The notes beneath the pieces were generated by a model that did not search any database, was not told the origin of the DNA, and worked only from the letters and a program-made list of their open reading frames with translations. Shown here in pieces: positions 7,378 to 44,273 of a stretch of 64,000 nt of DNA; positions within the stretch are counted from its first letter, which is position 1, and every line of letters begins with the position of its first letter. Made by a program: the position numbers and the translations under genes. Source of the DNA: Candidatus Nomurabacteria bacterium. GTDB taxonomy: Bacteria > Patescibacteriota > Saccharimonadia > Saccharimonadales > HK-STAS-PATE-42. The DNA is taken from the NCBI GenBank assembly GCA_023898665.1, contig CP060233.1, positions 210,801-274,800 of the forward strand, in the 5' to 3' direction.

Positions 7378-7453
7378 GGGCTCGTGGTGTAGTGGTTAAC
7401 ATGCCTCCCTGTCACGGAGGAGATCGCCAGTTCGATCCTGGTCGGGCCCGCCA
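7378..7453 (+). tRNA. tRNA-Asp(GTC)
   Basis: Canonical 76-nt cloverleaf. Anticodon arm CCTCC-CTGTCAC-GGAGG, T-arm GCCAG-TTCGATC-CTGGT, encoded CCA. Confidence 0.95.
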
Positions 7454-8959
7454 ATCCGTATTTCGGTTGCTGACATGCAACAAGTTAAGTGGCTCCCTAG
7501 CTGTTAGAGTCACTTTTTTATTGCCTAAAAACCAGTTCGAACCTAGGAATATCATGAGTTGGCGTTTTTCTTGGTCATTAGCCTCTTTGAAGACTTCACC
7601 AAGGTTAACTGCTCCTGAAAAAGTTTCCTTTGCTAGCTCTAGCCACCTGCTGGCGTCTGTTTCTGATTCTTTAAGGAGTTTATTGGTTCTAGCCAGAGTT
7701 TCTTCGTGCTTGGCAGCCCTAAGCTTATAGCGCTCGTCAGTCATTACTCCACTTTCCAGCTTATCGTCCAATATCTCTAATGCTCCCTGAGCCTGTCTCA
7801 TGTCTTTGAGCCAGAGCGGCTTAAAGCGCGCTCGTTCTTTGACGAATTCATTATAGTGTTGGTCCAGCCAGTTTGAGCACTCCTTGCTATCCTTCTCACT
7901 GATCTCATATTCTTGCATGTGAGCCAGCACCTCTGTTTCTATGAGTCGGTCTGCTAGTTGGGGCTCGTTACACTTAATTCTCTTGTTCTTTTTTGTGCAT
8001 GTATAAAATATATATTCGGCTTCACTGCCATTGGCTAGCTTTTTGGGCTTTGTGTAAGCCGTGATATTGAACTTGCACGTTTGGCAAAGCATTAAGCCTT
8101 TGTAGGTATATTGCCTACCTGATGTAGTAGAGGGGTGTTTACCTGAGCTTTTTCTCCATCCCATGGCAATTTGTACCTTGTCATAGGTTTCTACAGATAT
8201 AAGGGGCTTGTAGGCCCCTTGATGCCACTCATCGCCACCATACTTAAACACTCCCGTATAAACACGGCGCTTTAGCATGTCTGCTAGGGTAGGTTTACTT
8301 ATTTGTTTATCTCTCCGAGACTTCAAACCTATATCTATGGCGTGTTTCCATACATCGGTTAGTGTATTGGTACCTGTGCTTGCAAATTCAAAGCATTCTT
8401 GTACTCGCCAGCCTCTTTCTGGATCGGGAGTAATATTACGTGTTTTTGGCCCAAGGATTGAGTTTATATAGCCAAGAGGAGCTGGTCCAGGATATTCACC
8501 ATGATTGCGTTTTTCAACAAAGCTATCTCTTACTTGGTCACTTAGGTCGTCATTATTTTTCTTTGCGAATGTTAGCTCAATTGATAGGAATGCTTTGTCT
8601 GTGGAGGTGTTTCTAAAGACTCGTCCAGGTGTATATATCGCCAGCAAGTCACCGTCATCCATCAGCTGAATGATTTGCCCTGTGTCATATGCATTGCGAC
8701 TCAGGCGGCTGTGGTGCCAAACTGCTATATAGCGAGCTTTATGGTCTCTAATGCCTTGGATCATATCGTTGAATATGGGACGGCCAGGCTTATATGCCGA
8801 TCTTTCCTCCGGTGGTAAAAAAGTGGGGGATAGACCGTTATCGTTAACTACTTGGCGAGTGTTACGATCTTGTTTTTCTAAGGAGTTATACTGCCTGTCT
8901 TCACGATCTTGAGATCGACGAAAGTAGACATAGCACTTAGATTTAGGATGCTCTTCCAT
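7412..8959 (-). CDS. large serine recombinase (integrase)
   Basis: N-terminal resolvase-type catalytic domain (YVYFRRSQDRE...SLEKQ), recombinase domain, and zinc-ribbon Cys pairs (CQTC...CTKK..C) with a coiled-coil tail. ATG at 8959 follows a GGAGG RBS. The 3' end overlaps tRNA-Asp. Confidence 0.9.
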   Translation of the reverse strand: MEEHPKSKCYVYFRRSQDREDRQYNSLEKQDRNTRQVVNDNGLSPTFLPPEERSAYKPGRPIFNDMIQGIRDHKARYIAVWHHSRLSRNAYDTGQIIQLMDDGDLLAIYTPGRVFRNTSTDKAFLSIELTFAKKNNDDLSDQVRDSFVEKRNHGEYPGPAPLGYINSILGPKTRNITPDPERGWRVQECFEFASTGTNTLTDVWKHAIDIGLKSRRDKQISKPTLADMLKRRVYTGVFKYGGDEWHQGAYKPLISVETYDKVQIAMGWRKSSGKHPSTTSGRQYTYKGLMLCQTCKFNITAYTKPKKLANGSEAEYIFYTCTKKNKRIKCNEPQLADRLIETEVLAHMQEYEISEKDSKECSNWLDQHYNEFVKERARFKPLWLKDMRQAQGALEILDDKLESGVMTDERYKLRAAKHEETLARTNKLLKESETDASRWLELAKETFSGAVNLGEVFKEANDQEKRQLMIFLGSNWFLGNKKVTLTAREPLNLLHVSNRNTDWRARPGSNWRSPP

Positions 8960-9240
8960 TACCAAATATCCTCCGTTGAATTCTGTCGTAGCAGACCGAT
9001 ATTATCAACGGAGGATATTTGGTCTGCTACGACTTTCTTGTTTTGTTCTTGGCTTCCGTATCTGGTGTCATTTTCGCCAAGAGAATGACCGTATTTTTTG
9101 CGGTATTTTATATCTACTATAAGCTCCAGAAATTTAAATAGCGTCTGGGCTTCGGTAGAGAAGTTATTTACTGAGCTGTTATTTTTCTTTATTAGTGAAG
9201 GTATGGAGCCACACCTTCTAGTATTGGTTGAGTTGGACAT
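8959..9240 (-). CDS. small hypothetical protein translationally coupled to the recombinase (possible directionality or regulatory factor)
   Basis: Its TAA stop overlaps the recombinase ATG (TAATG). Basic and Ser/Asn-rich. Start uncertain (ATG at 9240 or 9282). Confidence 0.4.
   Translation of the reverse strand: MSNSTNTRRCGSIPSLIKKNNSSVNNFSTEAQTLFKFLELIVDIKYRKKYGHSLGENDTRYGSQEQNKKVVADQISSVDNIGLLRQNSTEDIW
8962..9033 (-). promoter_or_regulatory. interleaved perfect inverted repeats (18 bp and 13 bp) covering the recombinase RBS
   Basis: 8962-8979 is the exact reverse complement of 9005-9022, and 8985-8997 is the exact reverse complement of 9021-9033. The GGAGG RBS lies inside the 18-mer. Confidence 0.6.
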
Positions 9241-9508
9241 TATGGATGACCTTCTGGAGTTTAAGCTCCAATTAAGTCGCATGTAAGCCCGTTTTAAAAC
9301 AACCGAGTCCGTCTCTCGTTCTACTTACAATCCCATATTCTCCAACCGATTCTGCTAAGGCGGTACGTTCTGTTCCGCACAGAATAAAAGATTACGAATG
9401 ATTAATATTGATTAGGTACATGCTATCCCTTTGGGAATGACACTCTAACACTTCATTCGGTGTTAATACTTTTCATTATGCAAAGCACAGCCTTTACTGT
9501 CAATCTTT

Positions 9509-10015
9509 TTATTGCTGATCAACAGGACCGTAGACTACCTGGCCACTAATGGCTAGGTTATGGAGAGTGATGTTGTCATCAGTACCACTTACTGAGCAGA
9601 CAAATAGAACGTTTTCTTTAGTTTCTTTATTCTGACCAATCCACTGGAAGTCATAGATGGTATCTCCATTGGAGGCTTTAGTGCCACTATCATTGAATTG
9701 AGGATCATAGGCAGTGACTTTGATAATGCTAATCTTATTTAGATCAATGTACTTCCCTAGAAGTGCTGCATCTTGGCAGTATTTCTCAGCAGCATCTTGA
9801 GATACTGTATTCTCTACTTTAGCCGGAGTAGTGGAATTATCTTGTGTGCTTGCTTGGCTGGATGAAGTTTTGGAAGACTTATCGTCGGAGTCTTTCTTGC
9901 CCCCACTGATAGCGCTTGCTACTATGAATATGATGATAGCTATAACGATAAACCCTAGTACAGGATGTTCTTTCCTGCCATCTGGCTGTTTTAGCCCTTT
10001 ATCTCTCTTTTTCAT
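9509..10015 (-). CDS. membrane-anchored or secreted hypothetical protein
   Basis: N-terminal TM helix, Ser/Thr/Asp-rich linker, and a C-terminal globular domain. AAGGAGG RBS 6 nt upstream. Confidence 0.55.
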   Translation of the reverse strand: MKKRDKGLKQPDGRKEHPVLGFIVIAIIIFIVASAISGGKKDSDDKSSKTSSSQASTQDNSTTPAKVENTVSQDAAEKYCQDAALLGKYIDLNKISIIKVTAYDPQFNDSGTKASNGDTIYDFQWIGQNKETKENVLFVCSVSGTDDNITLHNLAISGQVVYGPVDQQ

Positions 10016-10391
10016 ATAACCTCCTTGGTTATTAATTGTTGGTTAATTCTAGGAGGCTATTCTTAGATAACAAAAAGGACAGCCACGCTAGTTGTCTAAA
10101 CCCACAACAGGGTTGAACCCAATTGCTTTTTTACGTAGCTGCCCATTAGCAGGTTCAACTTCGCTTTAAAAGCGTTCTTTTCTGTTGCAGATTTAGACTC
10201 CTTGGATTATACCATTGGCATACGGGTTAATTCAGCTCAATTAGTATCTACTTATTTTACTTTTTTTCCATACGCGAAAATAGTCCCACTCACCGCGCTT
10301 GGCGTTTAACGGGGAAAGGGTACATAGGGACCCCCCCTTTTTTTTCTTCTCTTAAGTTAGTGTTTTTGGAACAGTGCTAAACTCAACAAGC

Positions 10392-10832
10392 CTATTTGAA
10401 GTTTATATTAATCTCTAGAGGAATACTCGTTAGTAGCTTGTCCTTCTCGCCCTTTTTCTTTAAGTACAACTTAAACTTGTAGACTCCTTCTGTAGTCACT
10501 CCTATGGTGTCAAACTTAATCCTGGACCTCATACGATTGTGCTGAGGTTCGAATCTGATTTTTGCTTCAACTTTCCCTATTTGTTTGCTGGATGGGTCAA
10601 TTATATCTACATAATAATCGTGAGTCTCTATTCTTCCTTTTTTATCTCTGTAAAACATCGAGACTATTTCAAAGGGTACATTAAATAGGTTAGTTTTGCC
10701 TTTTTGAAAGTTTACTTCTGCTTCCGGTATGTCGAAGTTTAAGTTTTCAAGGGCGTCAATAATAGTGATAGAGTTTGTGTCAGAATCTATCTTGCTCTCT
10801 TTGCATATAATAGTCCAAATGTGTTCAATCAT
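10392..10832 (-). CDS. hypothetical protein, third gene of the toxin-antitoxin operon
   Basis: Its ATG overlaps the antitoxin stop (TAATG). Beta-rich 146-aa protein; no family recognised. Confidence 0.6.
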   Translation of the reverse strand: MIEHIWTIICKESKIDSDTNSITIIDALENLNFDIPEAEVNFQKGKTNLFNVPFEIVSMFYRDKKGRIETHDYYVDIIDPSSKQIGKVEAKIRFEPQHNRMRSRIKFDTIGVTTEGVYKFKLYLKKKGEKDKLLTSIPLEININFK

Positions 10833-11251
10833 TACTGTGTTCCTCCTTTTAATTCTATGTTCGTGGACATGAGTGTAGTGGGCACTAACTCTGCCTTTAT
10901 TGATTTAAAGGTGCTGTTAGCCCAAGTATGCAATGCGTTTACTGTAGATGTAGCAAAGCTTTGAGATGGAAAGAACCTTATCTCGATGCTATGGTCGAGT
11001 ACGTCTGCGAGTTCGACGAGCTTTTTGAGGTTGTAACTCTCATATCCAGGGCTCTCCCACCTGGCAATCGATGGGTGACTTGTTTTTAGGATTTTTGCCA
11101 ATTGTCTTTGAGACAGACCCTTACTGCGCCTGAGTTTTGCTATATCTAAGGATAGATTGAAGAAGATTTCGTAACTAGCCCGTCTCTTTTTTGATTCCGG
11201 GTCACGTTTGTCTACCTCTTTTATTATGTCGCGTATTTCTTTGCTAAGCAT
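10832..11251 (-). CDS. XRE-family HTH antitoxin (HigA-like)
   Basis: HTH motif LSQRQLAKILKTSHPSIARWE. Overlaps the upstream toxin gene by 8 nt. Confidence 0.8.
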   Translation of the reverse strand: MLSKEIRDIIKEVDKRDPESKKRRASYEIFFNLSLDIAKLRRSKGLSQRQLAKILKTSHPSIARWESPGYESYNLKKLVELADVLDHSIEIRFFPSQSFATSTVNALHTWANSTFKSIKAELVPTTLMSTNIELKGGTQ

Positions 11252-11600
11252 AGTGTACCTCCTTCATGTGATATATGGCTTTTTCAATTTCCCGTTTGGG
11301 CATTTGTTGAGTTTTTTTTACAAATCCGTTTAATAGATATATTTTGCCCTTTATCATCGTGAAGAATACTCTAGCTATAGTATTCTTGTGTATTATTCTC
11401 ATACAATAGACCCCCTTGGCTATGTATTCTGTAAAGCCAGATTTCCCCCAGTTGAACCTGTACTGGAGTTTCTCTAAACCTTTGAGAACCTTATCCCTCA
11501 GCTCAACTGAGACCCCCTCGAACTGAGCTAAAGCCTCCGTGAAGGGGGCCTTACTTGAGCTTGTGCAGTGGTGGACCTCTACCTTGAATGTTTGGTTCAT
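11244..11600 (-). CDS. type II toxin, RelE/ParE superfamily (HigB / phage Gp49-like)
   Basis: C-terminal pattern GVYCMRIIHKNTIARVFFTMIKGKIYLLNGFVKKTQQMPKREIEKA is typical of the Gp49/DUF891 family. Confidence 0.8.
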   Translation of the reverse strand: MNQTFKVEVHHCTSSSKAPFTEALAQFEGVSVELRDKVLKGLEKLQYRFNWGKSGFTEYIAKGVYCMRIIHKNTIARVFFTMIKGKIYLLNGFVKKTQQMPKREIEKAIYHMKEVHYA

Positions 11601-41208: not shown

Positions 41209-44216
<3,008 letters not shown>

Positions 44217-44273
44217 GAACCATGCAGACCAGATCATTTTTGGATTTATTCATCGTGATTTGATCTGCTGGAA

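Follow-up and report, generated by a model that had tools for sequence, protein, structure and literature searches.

Integrases and recombinases of mobile islands must stay almost silent and yet remain inducible. How large serine recombinases (LSRs) are silenced is, to our knowledge, little known, also in Saccharibacteria and in bacteria of the Candidate Phyla Radiation (CPR) generally. Here we consider a 64,000-nucleotide stretch of the Candidatus Nomurabacteria bacterium genome (contig CP060233.1, positions 210,801 to 274,800), referred to as the window, where two inverted repeats are interleaved directly 5' of the start codon of an LSR gene, and we ask what such an arrangement does at this site. 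An original prediction, made from the sequence alone, had read the repeats as a possible two-state switch over the recombinase ribosome-binding site (RBS). We favour, with a probability of roughly 0.7, a cis-acting mRNA element that would sequester the LSR RBS and be opened by ribosomes translating the open reading frame (ORF) upstream, i.e., translational coupling of the RNA-unfolding type.

Two Interleaved Inverted Repeats at a Recombinase Start Codon

The recombinase gene (7412-8959, minus strand; ATG at 8957-8959) encodes a protein of 515 amino acids, which harbours Resolvase, Recombinase and Zn_ribbon_recom domains and has at least 281 homologues. A repeat search recovered both repeats in perfect and interleaved form, as had been claimed. 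Repeat I1 comprises arms of 19 nt at 8961-8979 and 9005-9023 with 25 nt between them, and repeat I2 arms of 13 nt at 8985-8997 and 9021-9033 with 23 nt between them; complementarity is 100% in both cases. The 13-nt pair had been given correctly, the longer pair as 18 instead of 19 nt. Within the 64-kb window, the arm sequences of either repeat have no further copy.

In the mRNA, which corresponds to the minus strand, the arms follow each other in the order S1-S2-S3-S4 and constitute a module of approximately 75 nt, where S1:S3 is termed helix H1 and S2:S4 helix H2. S1 (GUCGUAGCAGACC, 9021-9033), the 5' arm of H1, is defined by repeat I2 and the covariation of H1. S2 (ACCAAAUAUCCUCCGUUGA, 9005-9023), the 5' arm of H2, is delineated by repeat I1, covariation and the RNAalifold consensus; it lies in the H1 loop, and its nucleotides are coding sequence of the upstream ORF. 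The loop UAAUAUC (8998-9004), which according to the alignment varies among homologues in sequence and length (4-8 nt), leads to S3 (GGUCUGCUACGAC, 8985-8997), the 3' arm of H1, as identified by the repeat search and covariation. A linker, AGAAU (8980-8984), is not conserved in sequence and harbours the stop codon of the upstream ORF in 11 homologues. Finally, S4 (UCAACGGAGGAUAUUUGGU, 8961-8979), the 3' arm of H2, is defined by the repeats, covariation and the 16S anti-Shine-Dalgarno sequence. S1 and S2 overlap by 3 nt (ACC, 9021-9023), which can pair with the GGU of S3 or with that of S4. Read as a sequence, S3-AGAAT-S4 equals the reverse complement of S1-S2 after circular permutation.

As originally claimed, S4 contains the Shine-Dalgarno (SD) sequence GGAGG, which occupies positions 8970-8974, 10 nt before the recombinase ATG. 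The 3' end of the organism's own 16S rRNA reads ...ACCTCCTTTC (ACCUCCUUUC), and thus GGAGG in S4 is a canonical SD, while S2 (AUAUCCUCCG) mimics the anti-SD. The module is directly followed by AAUG, and the TAA stop codon of the upstream ORF (8959-8961) overlaps the recombinase start codon (TAATG).

Covariation of Both Helices in Homologous Loci

Scans of genome and metagenome contigs together with exact-protein look-ups yielded 58 loci, mostly from metagenome-assembled genomes of Saccharibacteria. The four-segment module is found in 25 distinct sequences, the LSR proteins of which are 50-84% identical to that of the window. These sequences were aligned without gaps over 81 columns, using N padding for differences in loop length.

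In all 25 sequences the S1-S2-S3-S4 order with S1:S3 and S2:S4 pairing is maintained, i.e., the topology of an H-type pseudoknot. Across both helices 92.0% of the cells are paired, compared to 31-43% if the 3' partners are slid by 1-3 columns. Changes on both sides occurred in 16 of 29 pairs, and the observed covariation score was reached by none of 500 shuffles. Column pair 6-49, for example, is CG in 13 sequences, GC in 11 and UA in one; pair 24-66 is CG in 14 and UA in 11; and pair 17-73 is AU in 12, GC in nine and UA in one. H1 appears in the variants GUCGUAGCAGACC, CCUAGCAGACC, GUCCUACCAGACC, CCUUCCAGAUC and GCUUUCCAGA, every one accompanied by its exact complement, and H2 in the variants CCUCCGUUGA, CUCCCGUUGAU, CUCCCAUUGA and CGUCGAU, likewise with complements. 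The original prediction had named covariation in homologous loci as a check, and both helices do covary.

Midway along H2, the column pair 21-69 lacks pairing in 21 of the 25 sequences and splits this helix into a 10-bp SD core and a distal part of 8-10 bp, which also covaries and reaches into S1. H1 and H2 have 1-5 nt in common; for 14 of the 25 sequences the number is 3 or more. The shared nucleotides (columns 13-15, up to 11-15) pair and covary with the 5' end of S3 as well as with the 3' end of S4, giving the variants ACC:GGT/GGT, AUC:GAU/GAU and AGACC:GGUCU/GGUCU. In the full-length helices the linker between S1 and S2 has zero length. Because of the shared nucleotides and the missing linker, the full-length forms cannot coexist, and to this extent the two helices are mutually exclusive, as had been proposed.

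The amino acids encoded over the stems change non-conservatively (A/P, L/E/V), and in one homologue (L056) the reading frame over S1-S2 differs, and yet the stems are kept. Selection thus acts on the pairing of the nucleic acid and not on the peptide. Judged from the alignment, both helices are independently selected, and the structure is conserved and no accident.

Folding and Predicted Sequestration of the Ribosome-Binding Site

A folding-energy calculation, another check named at the outset, identifies S2:S4 as the dominant fold, be it in single-sequence folding, in the RNAalifold consensus structure, which equals S2:S4, or in the ensemble analysis. The 106-nt RNA folds at -36.6 kcal/mol, versus -17.2 +/- 2.9 kcal/mol for 200 dinucleotide shuffles (z = -6.7), none of which folds as well as the real RNA, and hence the notion that such repeats are very unlikely to arise by chance is borne out. 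In the window, H2 comprises 19 bp at -30.7 kcal/mol, and the SD and the start region are sequestered in stable structure. Among the homologues, helix energies range from -8 to -25 kcal/mol for H1 and from -14 to -31 kcal/mol for H2, and the two are similar in strength.

In pseudoknot-free ensembles S2:S4 wins in 21 of 25 sequences, where almost every molecule has a paired SD core. For 22 of the 25 homologues, at least 93% of the ensemble pairs the SD core, a share that exceeds 99% for 16 of them; at equilibrium, H2 is dominant in these ensembles except in three homologues (L017, L018 and L045). The paired SD core in most homologues, together with the return of H2 by RNAalifold, argues for a default state in which the RBS is closed. 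The SD is part of S4, and S2:S4 predominates among the folds, which supports the claim that this helix hides the RBS. Refolding from the H1 state along a nested path meets a barrier that amounts to complete unfolding (13-29 kcal/mol; findpath), a value that is uninformative beyond the caveat that nested models cannot represent an interleaved intermediate.

A Putative Translational Coupling Element

The small ORF upstream of the recombinase gene (8959-9240, minus strand) codes for 93 amino acids from an ATG at 9240, and its frame is open back to 9282. Based on conservation it is a real gene, because a small ORF with the conserved motif LF.FL.L.VDIKYR.KYG precedes the LSR in all loci. Both ORFs run in the same direction, with little space between them or an overlap. 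In all 23 homologues with a traceable frame, the upstream frame traverses S1 and S2, with L056 as a partial exception, where the stop codon occupies the last 1-3 nt of S2. Of the 23 homologues, 11 have the stop codon in the S3-S4 linker and one (L056) where S2 ends; otherwise it is located at the recombinase ATG, as in the window, or a few nucleotides past it. Accordingly, the distance from stop to start ranges from about +50 nt (L056) and approximately +24 nt through to overlaps of up to about 10 nt. The original prediction had placed the whole structure inside the upstream ORF, which is true in the window and does not extend to the 12 homologues with an earlier stop. Ribosomes nevertheless have to cross S1 and all or nearly all of S2 in every homologue, and with the ORF being conserved, the gating of recombinase synthesis by upstream translation, as originally put forward, is the natural reading.

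The position of the module relative to the SD and within the reading frames is observed; we infer that H2 represses initiation and that upstream translation relieves this repression. The small ORF and the LSR gene would form a two-gene operon carried by an integrative island, with the four segments as a cis structure in its mRNA. Through H2, the recombinase SD and what follows it as far as the start codon would be paired with the anti-SD-like stretch of the small ORF, some 45-60 nt further upstream, and while H2 is closed, a free 30S subunit would be blocked from binding. A ribosome crossing S1 and S2 would strip the 5' arms of both helices and expose the SD approximately 20-25 nt ahead of itself; as S4 lies 18-25 nt beyond the end of S2, there might be room for a 30S subunit. 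Alternatively, a ribosome terminating near S4 could hand the site over. Either way, recombinase synthesis would be tied to translation of the small ORF. A review of translational coupling describes RNA-unfolding cases in which the inhibitory sequence is about 50 nt away and both ribosomes are accommodated (PMC12548453). The geometry of the module matches these well-spaced cases and thus supports the coupling reading.

The Role of the H1 Helix

The original prediction held that S1:S3 frees the RBS. The modelled energies lend this no support: S2:S4 wins in 21 of the 25 pseudoknot-free ensembles, and on a rough pseudoknot estimate S1:S3 may lock the RBS rather than free it. The nucleotides shared by H1 and H2 suggest competition. 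H1 might fold first, either during transcription or behind the ribosome, hold S2 in its loop and delay re-closure, and hence serve as a latch of the ON state. Alternatively, H1 and the 10-bp SD core of H2 might form together, the resulting pseudoknot stabilising the closed state. As H1 is transcribed and re-emerges from the ribosome before S4, it could trap S2 and prolong the open state, which comes near to the original idea. In favour of the pseudoknot, a rough estimate from stacking energies and Dirks-Pierce penalties, which ignores sterics, gives the combination of H1 and the 10-bp SD core a lower energy than the best nested fold for 17 of the 25 sequences (-40.4 vs -34.8 kcal/mol in the window). 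With the 10-bp core only, the pseudoknot loops measure 6 nt (L1), 4-8 nt (L2) and 5-6 nt (L3, about 2 nt in L056). The short L3 and the selected overlap argue against an obligatory pseudoknot.

A bolder proposal, which we rate as rather doubtful, is that the module represents a purpose-built device not described so far, either a ribosome-actuated latch with memory or a pseudoknot operator bound by the recombinase or the small protein. As a latch, a ribosome on the small ORF would erase the SD helix, and S1:S3 would close behind it and hold the anti-SD in its loop. Recombinase initiation would then be possible for a set time after every upstream translation event, until the RNA relaxes via a pseudoknotted intermediate to the closed state. 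If true, such a device would set a very low, pulse-like output of integrase/excisionase in ultra-small CPR bacteria.

According to a rival explanation, the H-type pseudoknot of S1:S3 and the SD core would be a translational operator, to which the recombinase or the small protein binds to autoregulate recombinase translation, much as the ribosomal proteins S15, S4 and L20 autoregulate via their own mRNAs. The interleaved topology with both helices under selection fits this scheme, the near-universal 21-69 mismatch splits H2 so as to leave an L1 of 6 nt, and the rough energy estimate prefers the pseudoknot in the 17 sequences mentioned. However, this estimate ignores sterics, and an L3 of only 5-6 nt (about 2 nt in L056) faces an H1 of 11-13 bp. 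Moreover, the distal part of H2 covaries using nucleotides of S1, which a pure pseudoknot does not need, and neither protein contains an RNA-binding domain detectable by domain, PHROG or structure-model checks. We therefore deem an operator of this kind unlikely.

RNA Element or DNA Site

Action in RNA, which we infer for the coupling element, is supported by several features of the alignment. Among the homologues, the H1 loop spans 20-24 nt and the inner distance of H2 18-25 nt, and the sequences of loop and linker vary. Variable lengths favour an RNA hairpin, which tolerates them, over a rigid dimeric DNA-binding protein, which does not, since altered spacing would shift the helical phase of DNA half-sites. 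Isolated internal pairs that are not Watson-Crick also lean towards the mRNA strand, where G.U accounts for eight states versus three for A.C, and within H1 and the SD core for six versus none.

If the repeats acted in DNA instead, they might be binding sites of the recombinase, the small protein or an island repressor, or else att or inversion sites. The autoregulation of res/tnpR offers an operator/accessory-site model upstream of a recombinase gene. Consistent with a DNA site, the two palindromes are perfect in the window, both strands of the module contain promoter-like hexamers, a protein co-evolving with its site could produce apparent covariation, and the overall count of G.U versus A.C is without clear strand bias. 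Yet the A-B-A'-B' order is unfit for a dimer on composite half-sites, for which A-B-B'-A' is expected; the arm spacing varies by 4-7 bp among homologues; the candidate -10 hexamer, located in the S3-S4 linker, is not conserved; and the arms have no other copies in the window. The attachment junction of the LSR appears to lie at its own 3' end in a tRNA gene, 1.5 kb off, in every locus that reaches there, and the inner segment is inverted in none of the 25 homologues. Finally, an SD/anti-SD pair is what an RNA element requires, and a DNA site leaves it unexplained. We regard action in DNA as quite unlikely, and the original alternative of recombinase-binding or att-type sites is disfavoured by the interleaved order, the variable spacing and the junction elsewhere.

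Specific candidates were rejected one at a time. An LSR att site (about 40-50 bp, with a nested dyad and a central dinucleotide at the element boundary) does not agree with repeats that are interleaved and not nested, and with a boundary 1.5 kb away. A res-like resolvase operator is at odds with a spacing that varies by 4-7 bp and a would-be -10 that is not conserved, and an inverton with arms just 23-25 bp apart and the same orientation in 25 of 25 homologues. An internal promoter as in an IS10-like escape (TTGATA-17-CAGAAT, weak at 9/12, and a mirror image on the other strand) would have its -10 in the unconserved S3-S4 linker. A recombination footprint around GG(T) would imply an "insert" of only 34 bp; moreover, the repeats covary and are old, and the junction lies in the tRNA, at the opposite end of the recombinase gene. 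Neither S3 nor S4 is followed by the U-run of an intrinsic terminator. A programmed frameshift that fuses the small ORF to the recombinase was dismissed, as there is no conserved slippery site before S1, the stop/start geometry is variable, and the recombinase has its own SD and a conserved N-terminus.

That the structure has no function at all, being a quasi-palindrome left by template switching or local duplication or a by-product of coding constraints on the tail of the small ORF, is extremely improbable: mutation could produce a circular permutation of the S1-S2 reverse complement, and several related lineages miss the module, but compensatory changes occur in both helices across deep divergence, the stems are more conserved than the flanking codons, and the structure persists when the reading frame or the stop position shifts.

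Distribution and Natural Variants of the Module

The module is absent from about 11 related loci, where the small ORF and the LSR gene just overlap or abut. In loci of this type (L002, L003, L005, L009, L020, L024-L027, L033, L034 and L037), the small ORF stops soon after a GYS-like motif, and the LSR start is overlapped (ATGA-type or 8-nt overlaps) or a short spacer is left. At these junctions the module thus behaves like an insertion or deletion of approximately 70 nt. As loci without the module still overlap the two genes, coupling looks like a trait of the family, which the module tightens. According to a neighbour-joining LSR tree, the module has a basal position relative to the main clade, to which it appears ancestral, with at least three losses. 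In 355 kb searched with a covariance model derived from the alignment, each locus that carries the module gave a single match to the motif, in each case at this junction, and there was no other match in the window. Rfam 15 gave no match at the gathering threshold, and a permissive search of 8850-9300 returned chance-level hits only (E about 7-10). A scan for recombinase relatives on viral contigs found none.

Several points weigh against the proposed coupling element. Its whole basis is comparative and thermodynamic. With at least 11 related loci lacking it, the module would seem dispensable for the family, and in the closest relative (L007, 84% LSR identity) H1 has decayed to -7.8 kcal/mol and H2 contains two mismatches. 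Counted over all positions, G.U and A.C account for 12 versus 10 distinct states, and the asymmetry between them derives from few, partly non-independent events. The perfect DNA palindromes could in principle serve a protein. Moreover, if the pseudoknot forms, the switch part of the reading would fail; the coupling part would stand.

In L007 (3925-4003; also in L001, L013 and L014), five substitutions cluster in S3 and two affect S2, with unchanged flanks. In its altered form (CUUGGUU), S2 has acquired a complement of 7 nt (AACCAAG) on the 5' side of S1, and these changes could be decay or re-wiring of the element.

The module represents a compact, covariation-supported RNA element of about 75 nt at a defined gene junction, and a candidate cis-regulatory RNA family for a phylum with very few. 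Natural variants in which the module is lost, H1 decayed or the stop codon moved are at hand, such that coupling, as well as pseudoknot versus competing helices, can be tested. If the ribosome-dependent gate is real, it could provide synthetic biology with a small part for the tight gating of serine-integrase expression.

The Proposed Recombinase Operon and Its Island

The recombinase heads a block of minus-strand genes set between plus-strand host genes. The block further comprises the small ORF, a Sie-like protein, a DUF6941-like protein and a toxin-antitoxin-like pair (helix-turn-helix (HTH)/Gp49), and as far as the sequence tells, it is a small integrative island at tRNA-Asp. This tRNA gene (tRNA-Asp(GTC), 7378-7453, plus strand; tRNA and Rfam calls) is the probable integration target that marks the island edge. 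The LSR frame overlaps it on the opposite strand by 42 nt (7412-7453), and the last approximately 14 LSR residues (..WRARPGSNWRSPP) are encoded by the antisense of the 3' half of the tRNA. Ten of the first 12 loci extend past the LSR 3' end with a tRNA, which the LSR gene enters or immediately adjoins; the tRNA is Asp in most loci, Met in L004 and Asn in the distant L011 and L012. The overlap also occurs in closer homologues (with tRNA-Met in L004), and in L011 and L012 tRNA-Asn is found 40-110 nt past the tblastn match without overlap. This arrangement suggests an attachment site inside the 3' end of the recombinase gene, where excision or integration would alter the C-terminus. A displaced tRNA-Asp fragment as the second island boundary was sought by blastn-short, with chance-level matches only.

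A promoter-like site on the minus strand, TTGACA-17-CATAAT (9475-9503; 11/12, near-consensus sigma-70-type by consensus match only), lies about 230 nt upstream of the small ORF and is the likely start of the small-ORF/recombinase transcript. If this site is used, the leader of the small ORF (9241-9474) would be unusually long with about 230 nt; it is without Rfam match. For the small protein itself, Pfam and PHROG gave no match. Its AlphaFold model is poor (predicted local distance difference test (pLDDT) 60.6) and features one confident helix, and the tail encoded by the module has a low pLDDT. The sequence TGGAGCTTA occurs twice on the minus strand (9120-9131 and 9252-9270), inside the small ORF and just upstream of its SD, and a 12-nt inverted repeat (92%) connects the 5' untranslated region of the small ORF with a coding stretch 120 nt further downstream. 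This repeat might form a further structure, at the RBS of the small ORF itself, or be due to chance.

The cargo of the island (9509-11600) comprises a Sie-like superinfection-exclusion protein (phrog_8545, E = 1e-9), a weak DUF6941 match and an HTH_3 and Gp49 (HigA/HigB-like) pair, and looks defence-related by these matches. Elsewhere, the same small-ORF/LSR pair is found beside ThsB_TIR (L048), GIY-YIG (L050), a KAP NTPase (L058) and an ATPase-like protein of 632 amino acids (L004).

Apart from the island, ARAGORN reports a tRNA of undetermined identity with a two-base "anticodon (gg)" at 25641-25715 (Rfam tRNA, 59.4 bits), which precedes the RNase P RNA gene (25754-26148) by about 40 nt. The 23S rRNA match at 41209-44217 covers 3009 nt versus 2925 positions of the model, i.e., about 80 nt of extra sequence.

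Comparison with Known Systems

The nearest relatives of the module are cases of RNA-unfolding coupling such as MS2 coat/lysis and E. coli rpmI-rplT (PMC12548453), where the partner of the RBS helix is likewise located in a translated upstream ORF, tens of nucleotides away. In these cases, too, the ORFs are co-directional and adjacent or overlapping, and the upstream ribosome is expected to open the helix. Unlike MS2 coat/lysis and rpmI-rplT, the module contains a second, covarying helix that is interleaved and shares nucleotides with the RBS helix. It also resides in the recombinase operon of a mobile element of Saccharibacteria, where recombinase translation would depend on upstream translation.

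RBS-sequestering mRNA pseudoknots act as translational operators in rpsO/S15, the alpha operon/S4, rpmI-rplT/L20 and T4 gene 32. They share with the module two interleaved helices at or around the SD and the start codon. Yet these operators have a known protein binder and loops that are sterically unproblematic, whereas here the loops measure 0-7 nt and the full-length helices overlap.

In the fold-back inhibition of the IS10/IS50 type, an upstream inverted repeat pairs with the transposase RBS in long transcripts, and similarly, the recombination enzyme of a mobile element would be silenced here through an inverted repeat that pairs with its RBS. There, however, the native promoter lies between the arms and native transcripts escape, while the LSR module has no conserved internal promoter and its 5' arm is part of a translated gene. 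Two-state attenuators and riboswitch platforms likewise employ helices that compete for shared nucleotides, one of which hides the SD. In contrast to their adjacent alternatives, the helices described here are interleaved, without simple branch migration and without an evident ligand-binding domain, and the likely actuator is the ribosome.

Sequestration of an RBS that is relieved by upstream translation is therefore a known principle, whereas this interleaved motif is uncatalogued, in agreement with the lack of an Rfam match. What appears new is that a second helix covaries, is interleaved with the RBS helix and has nucleotides in common with it, together with the setting in the LSR operon of Saccharibacteria islands that seem to target tRNA genes.

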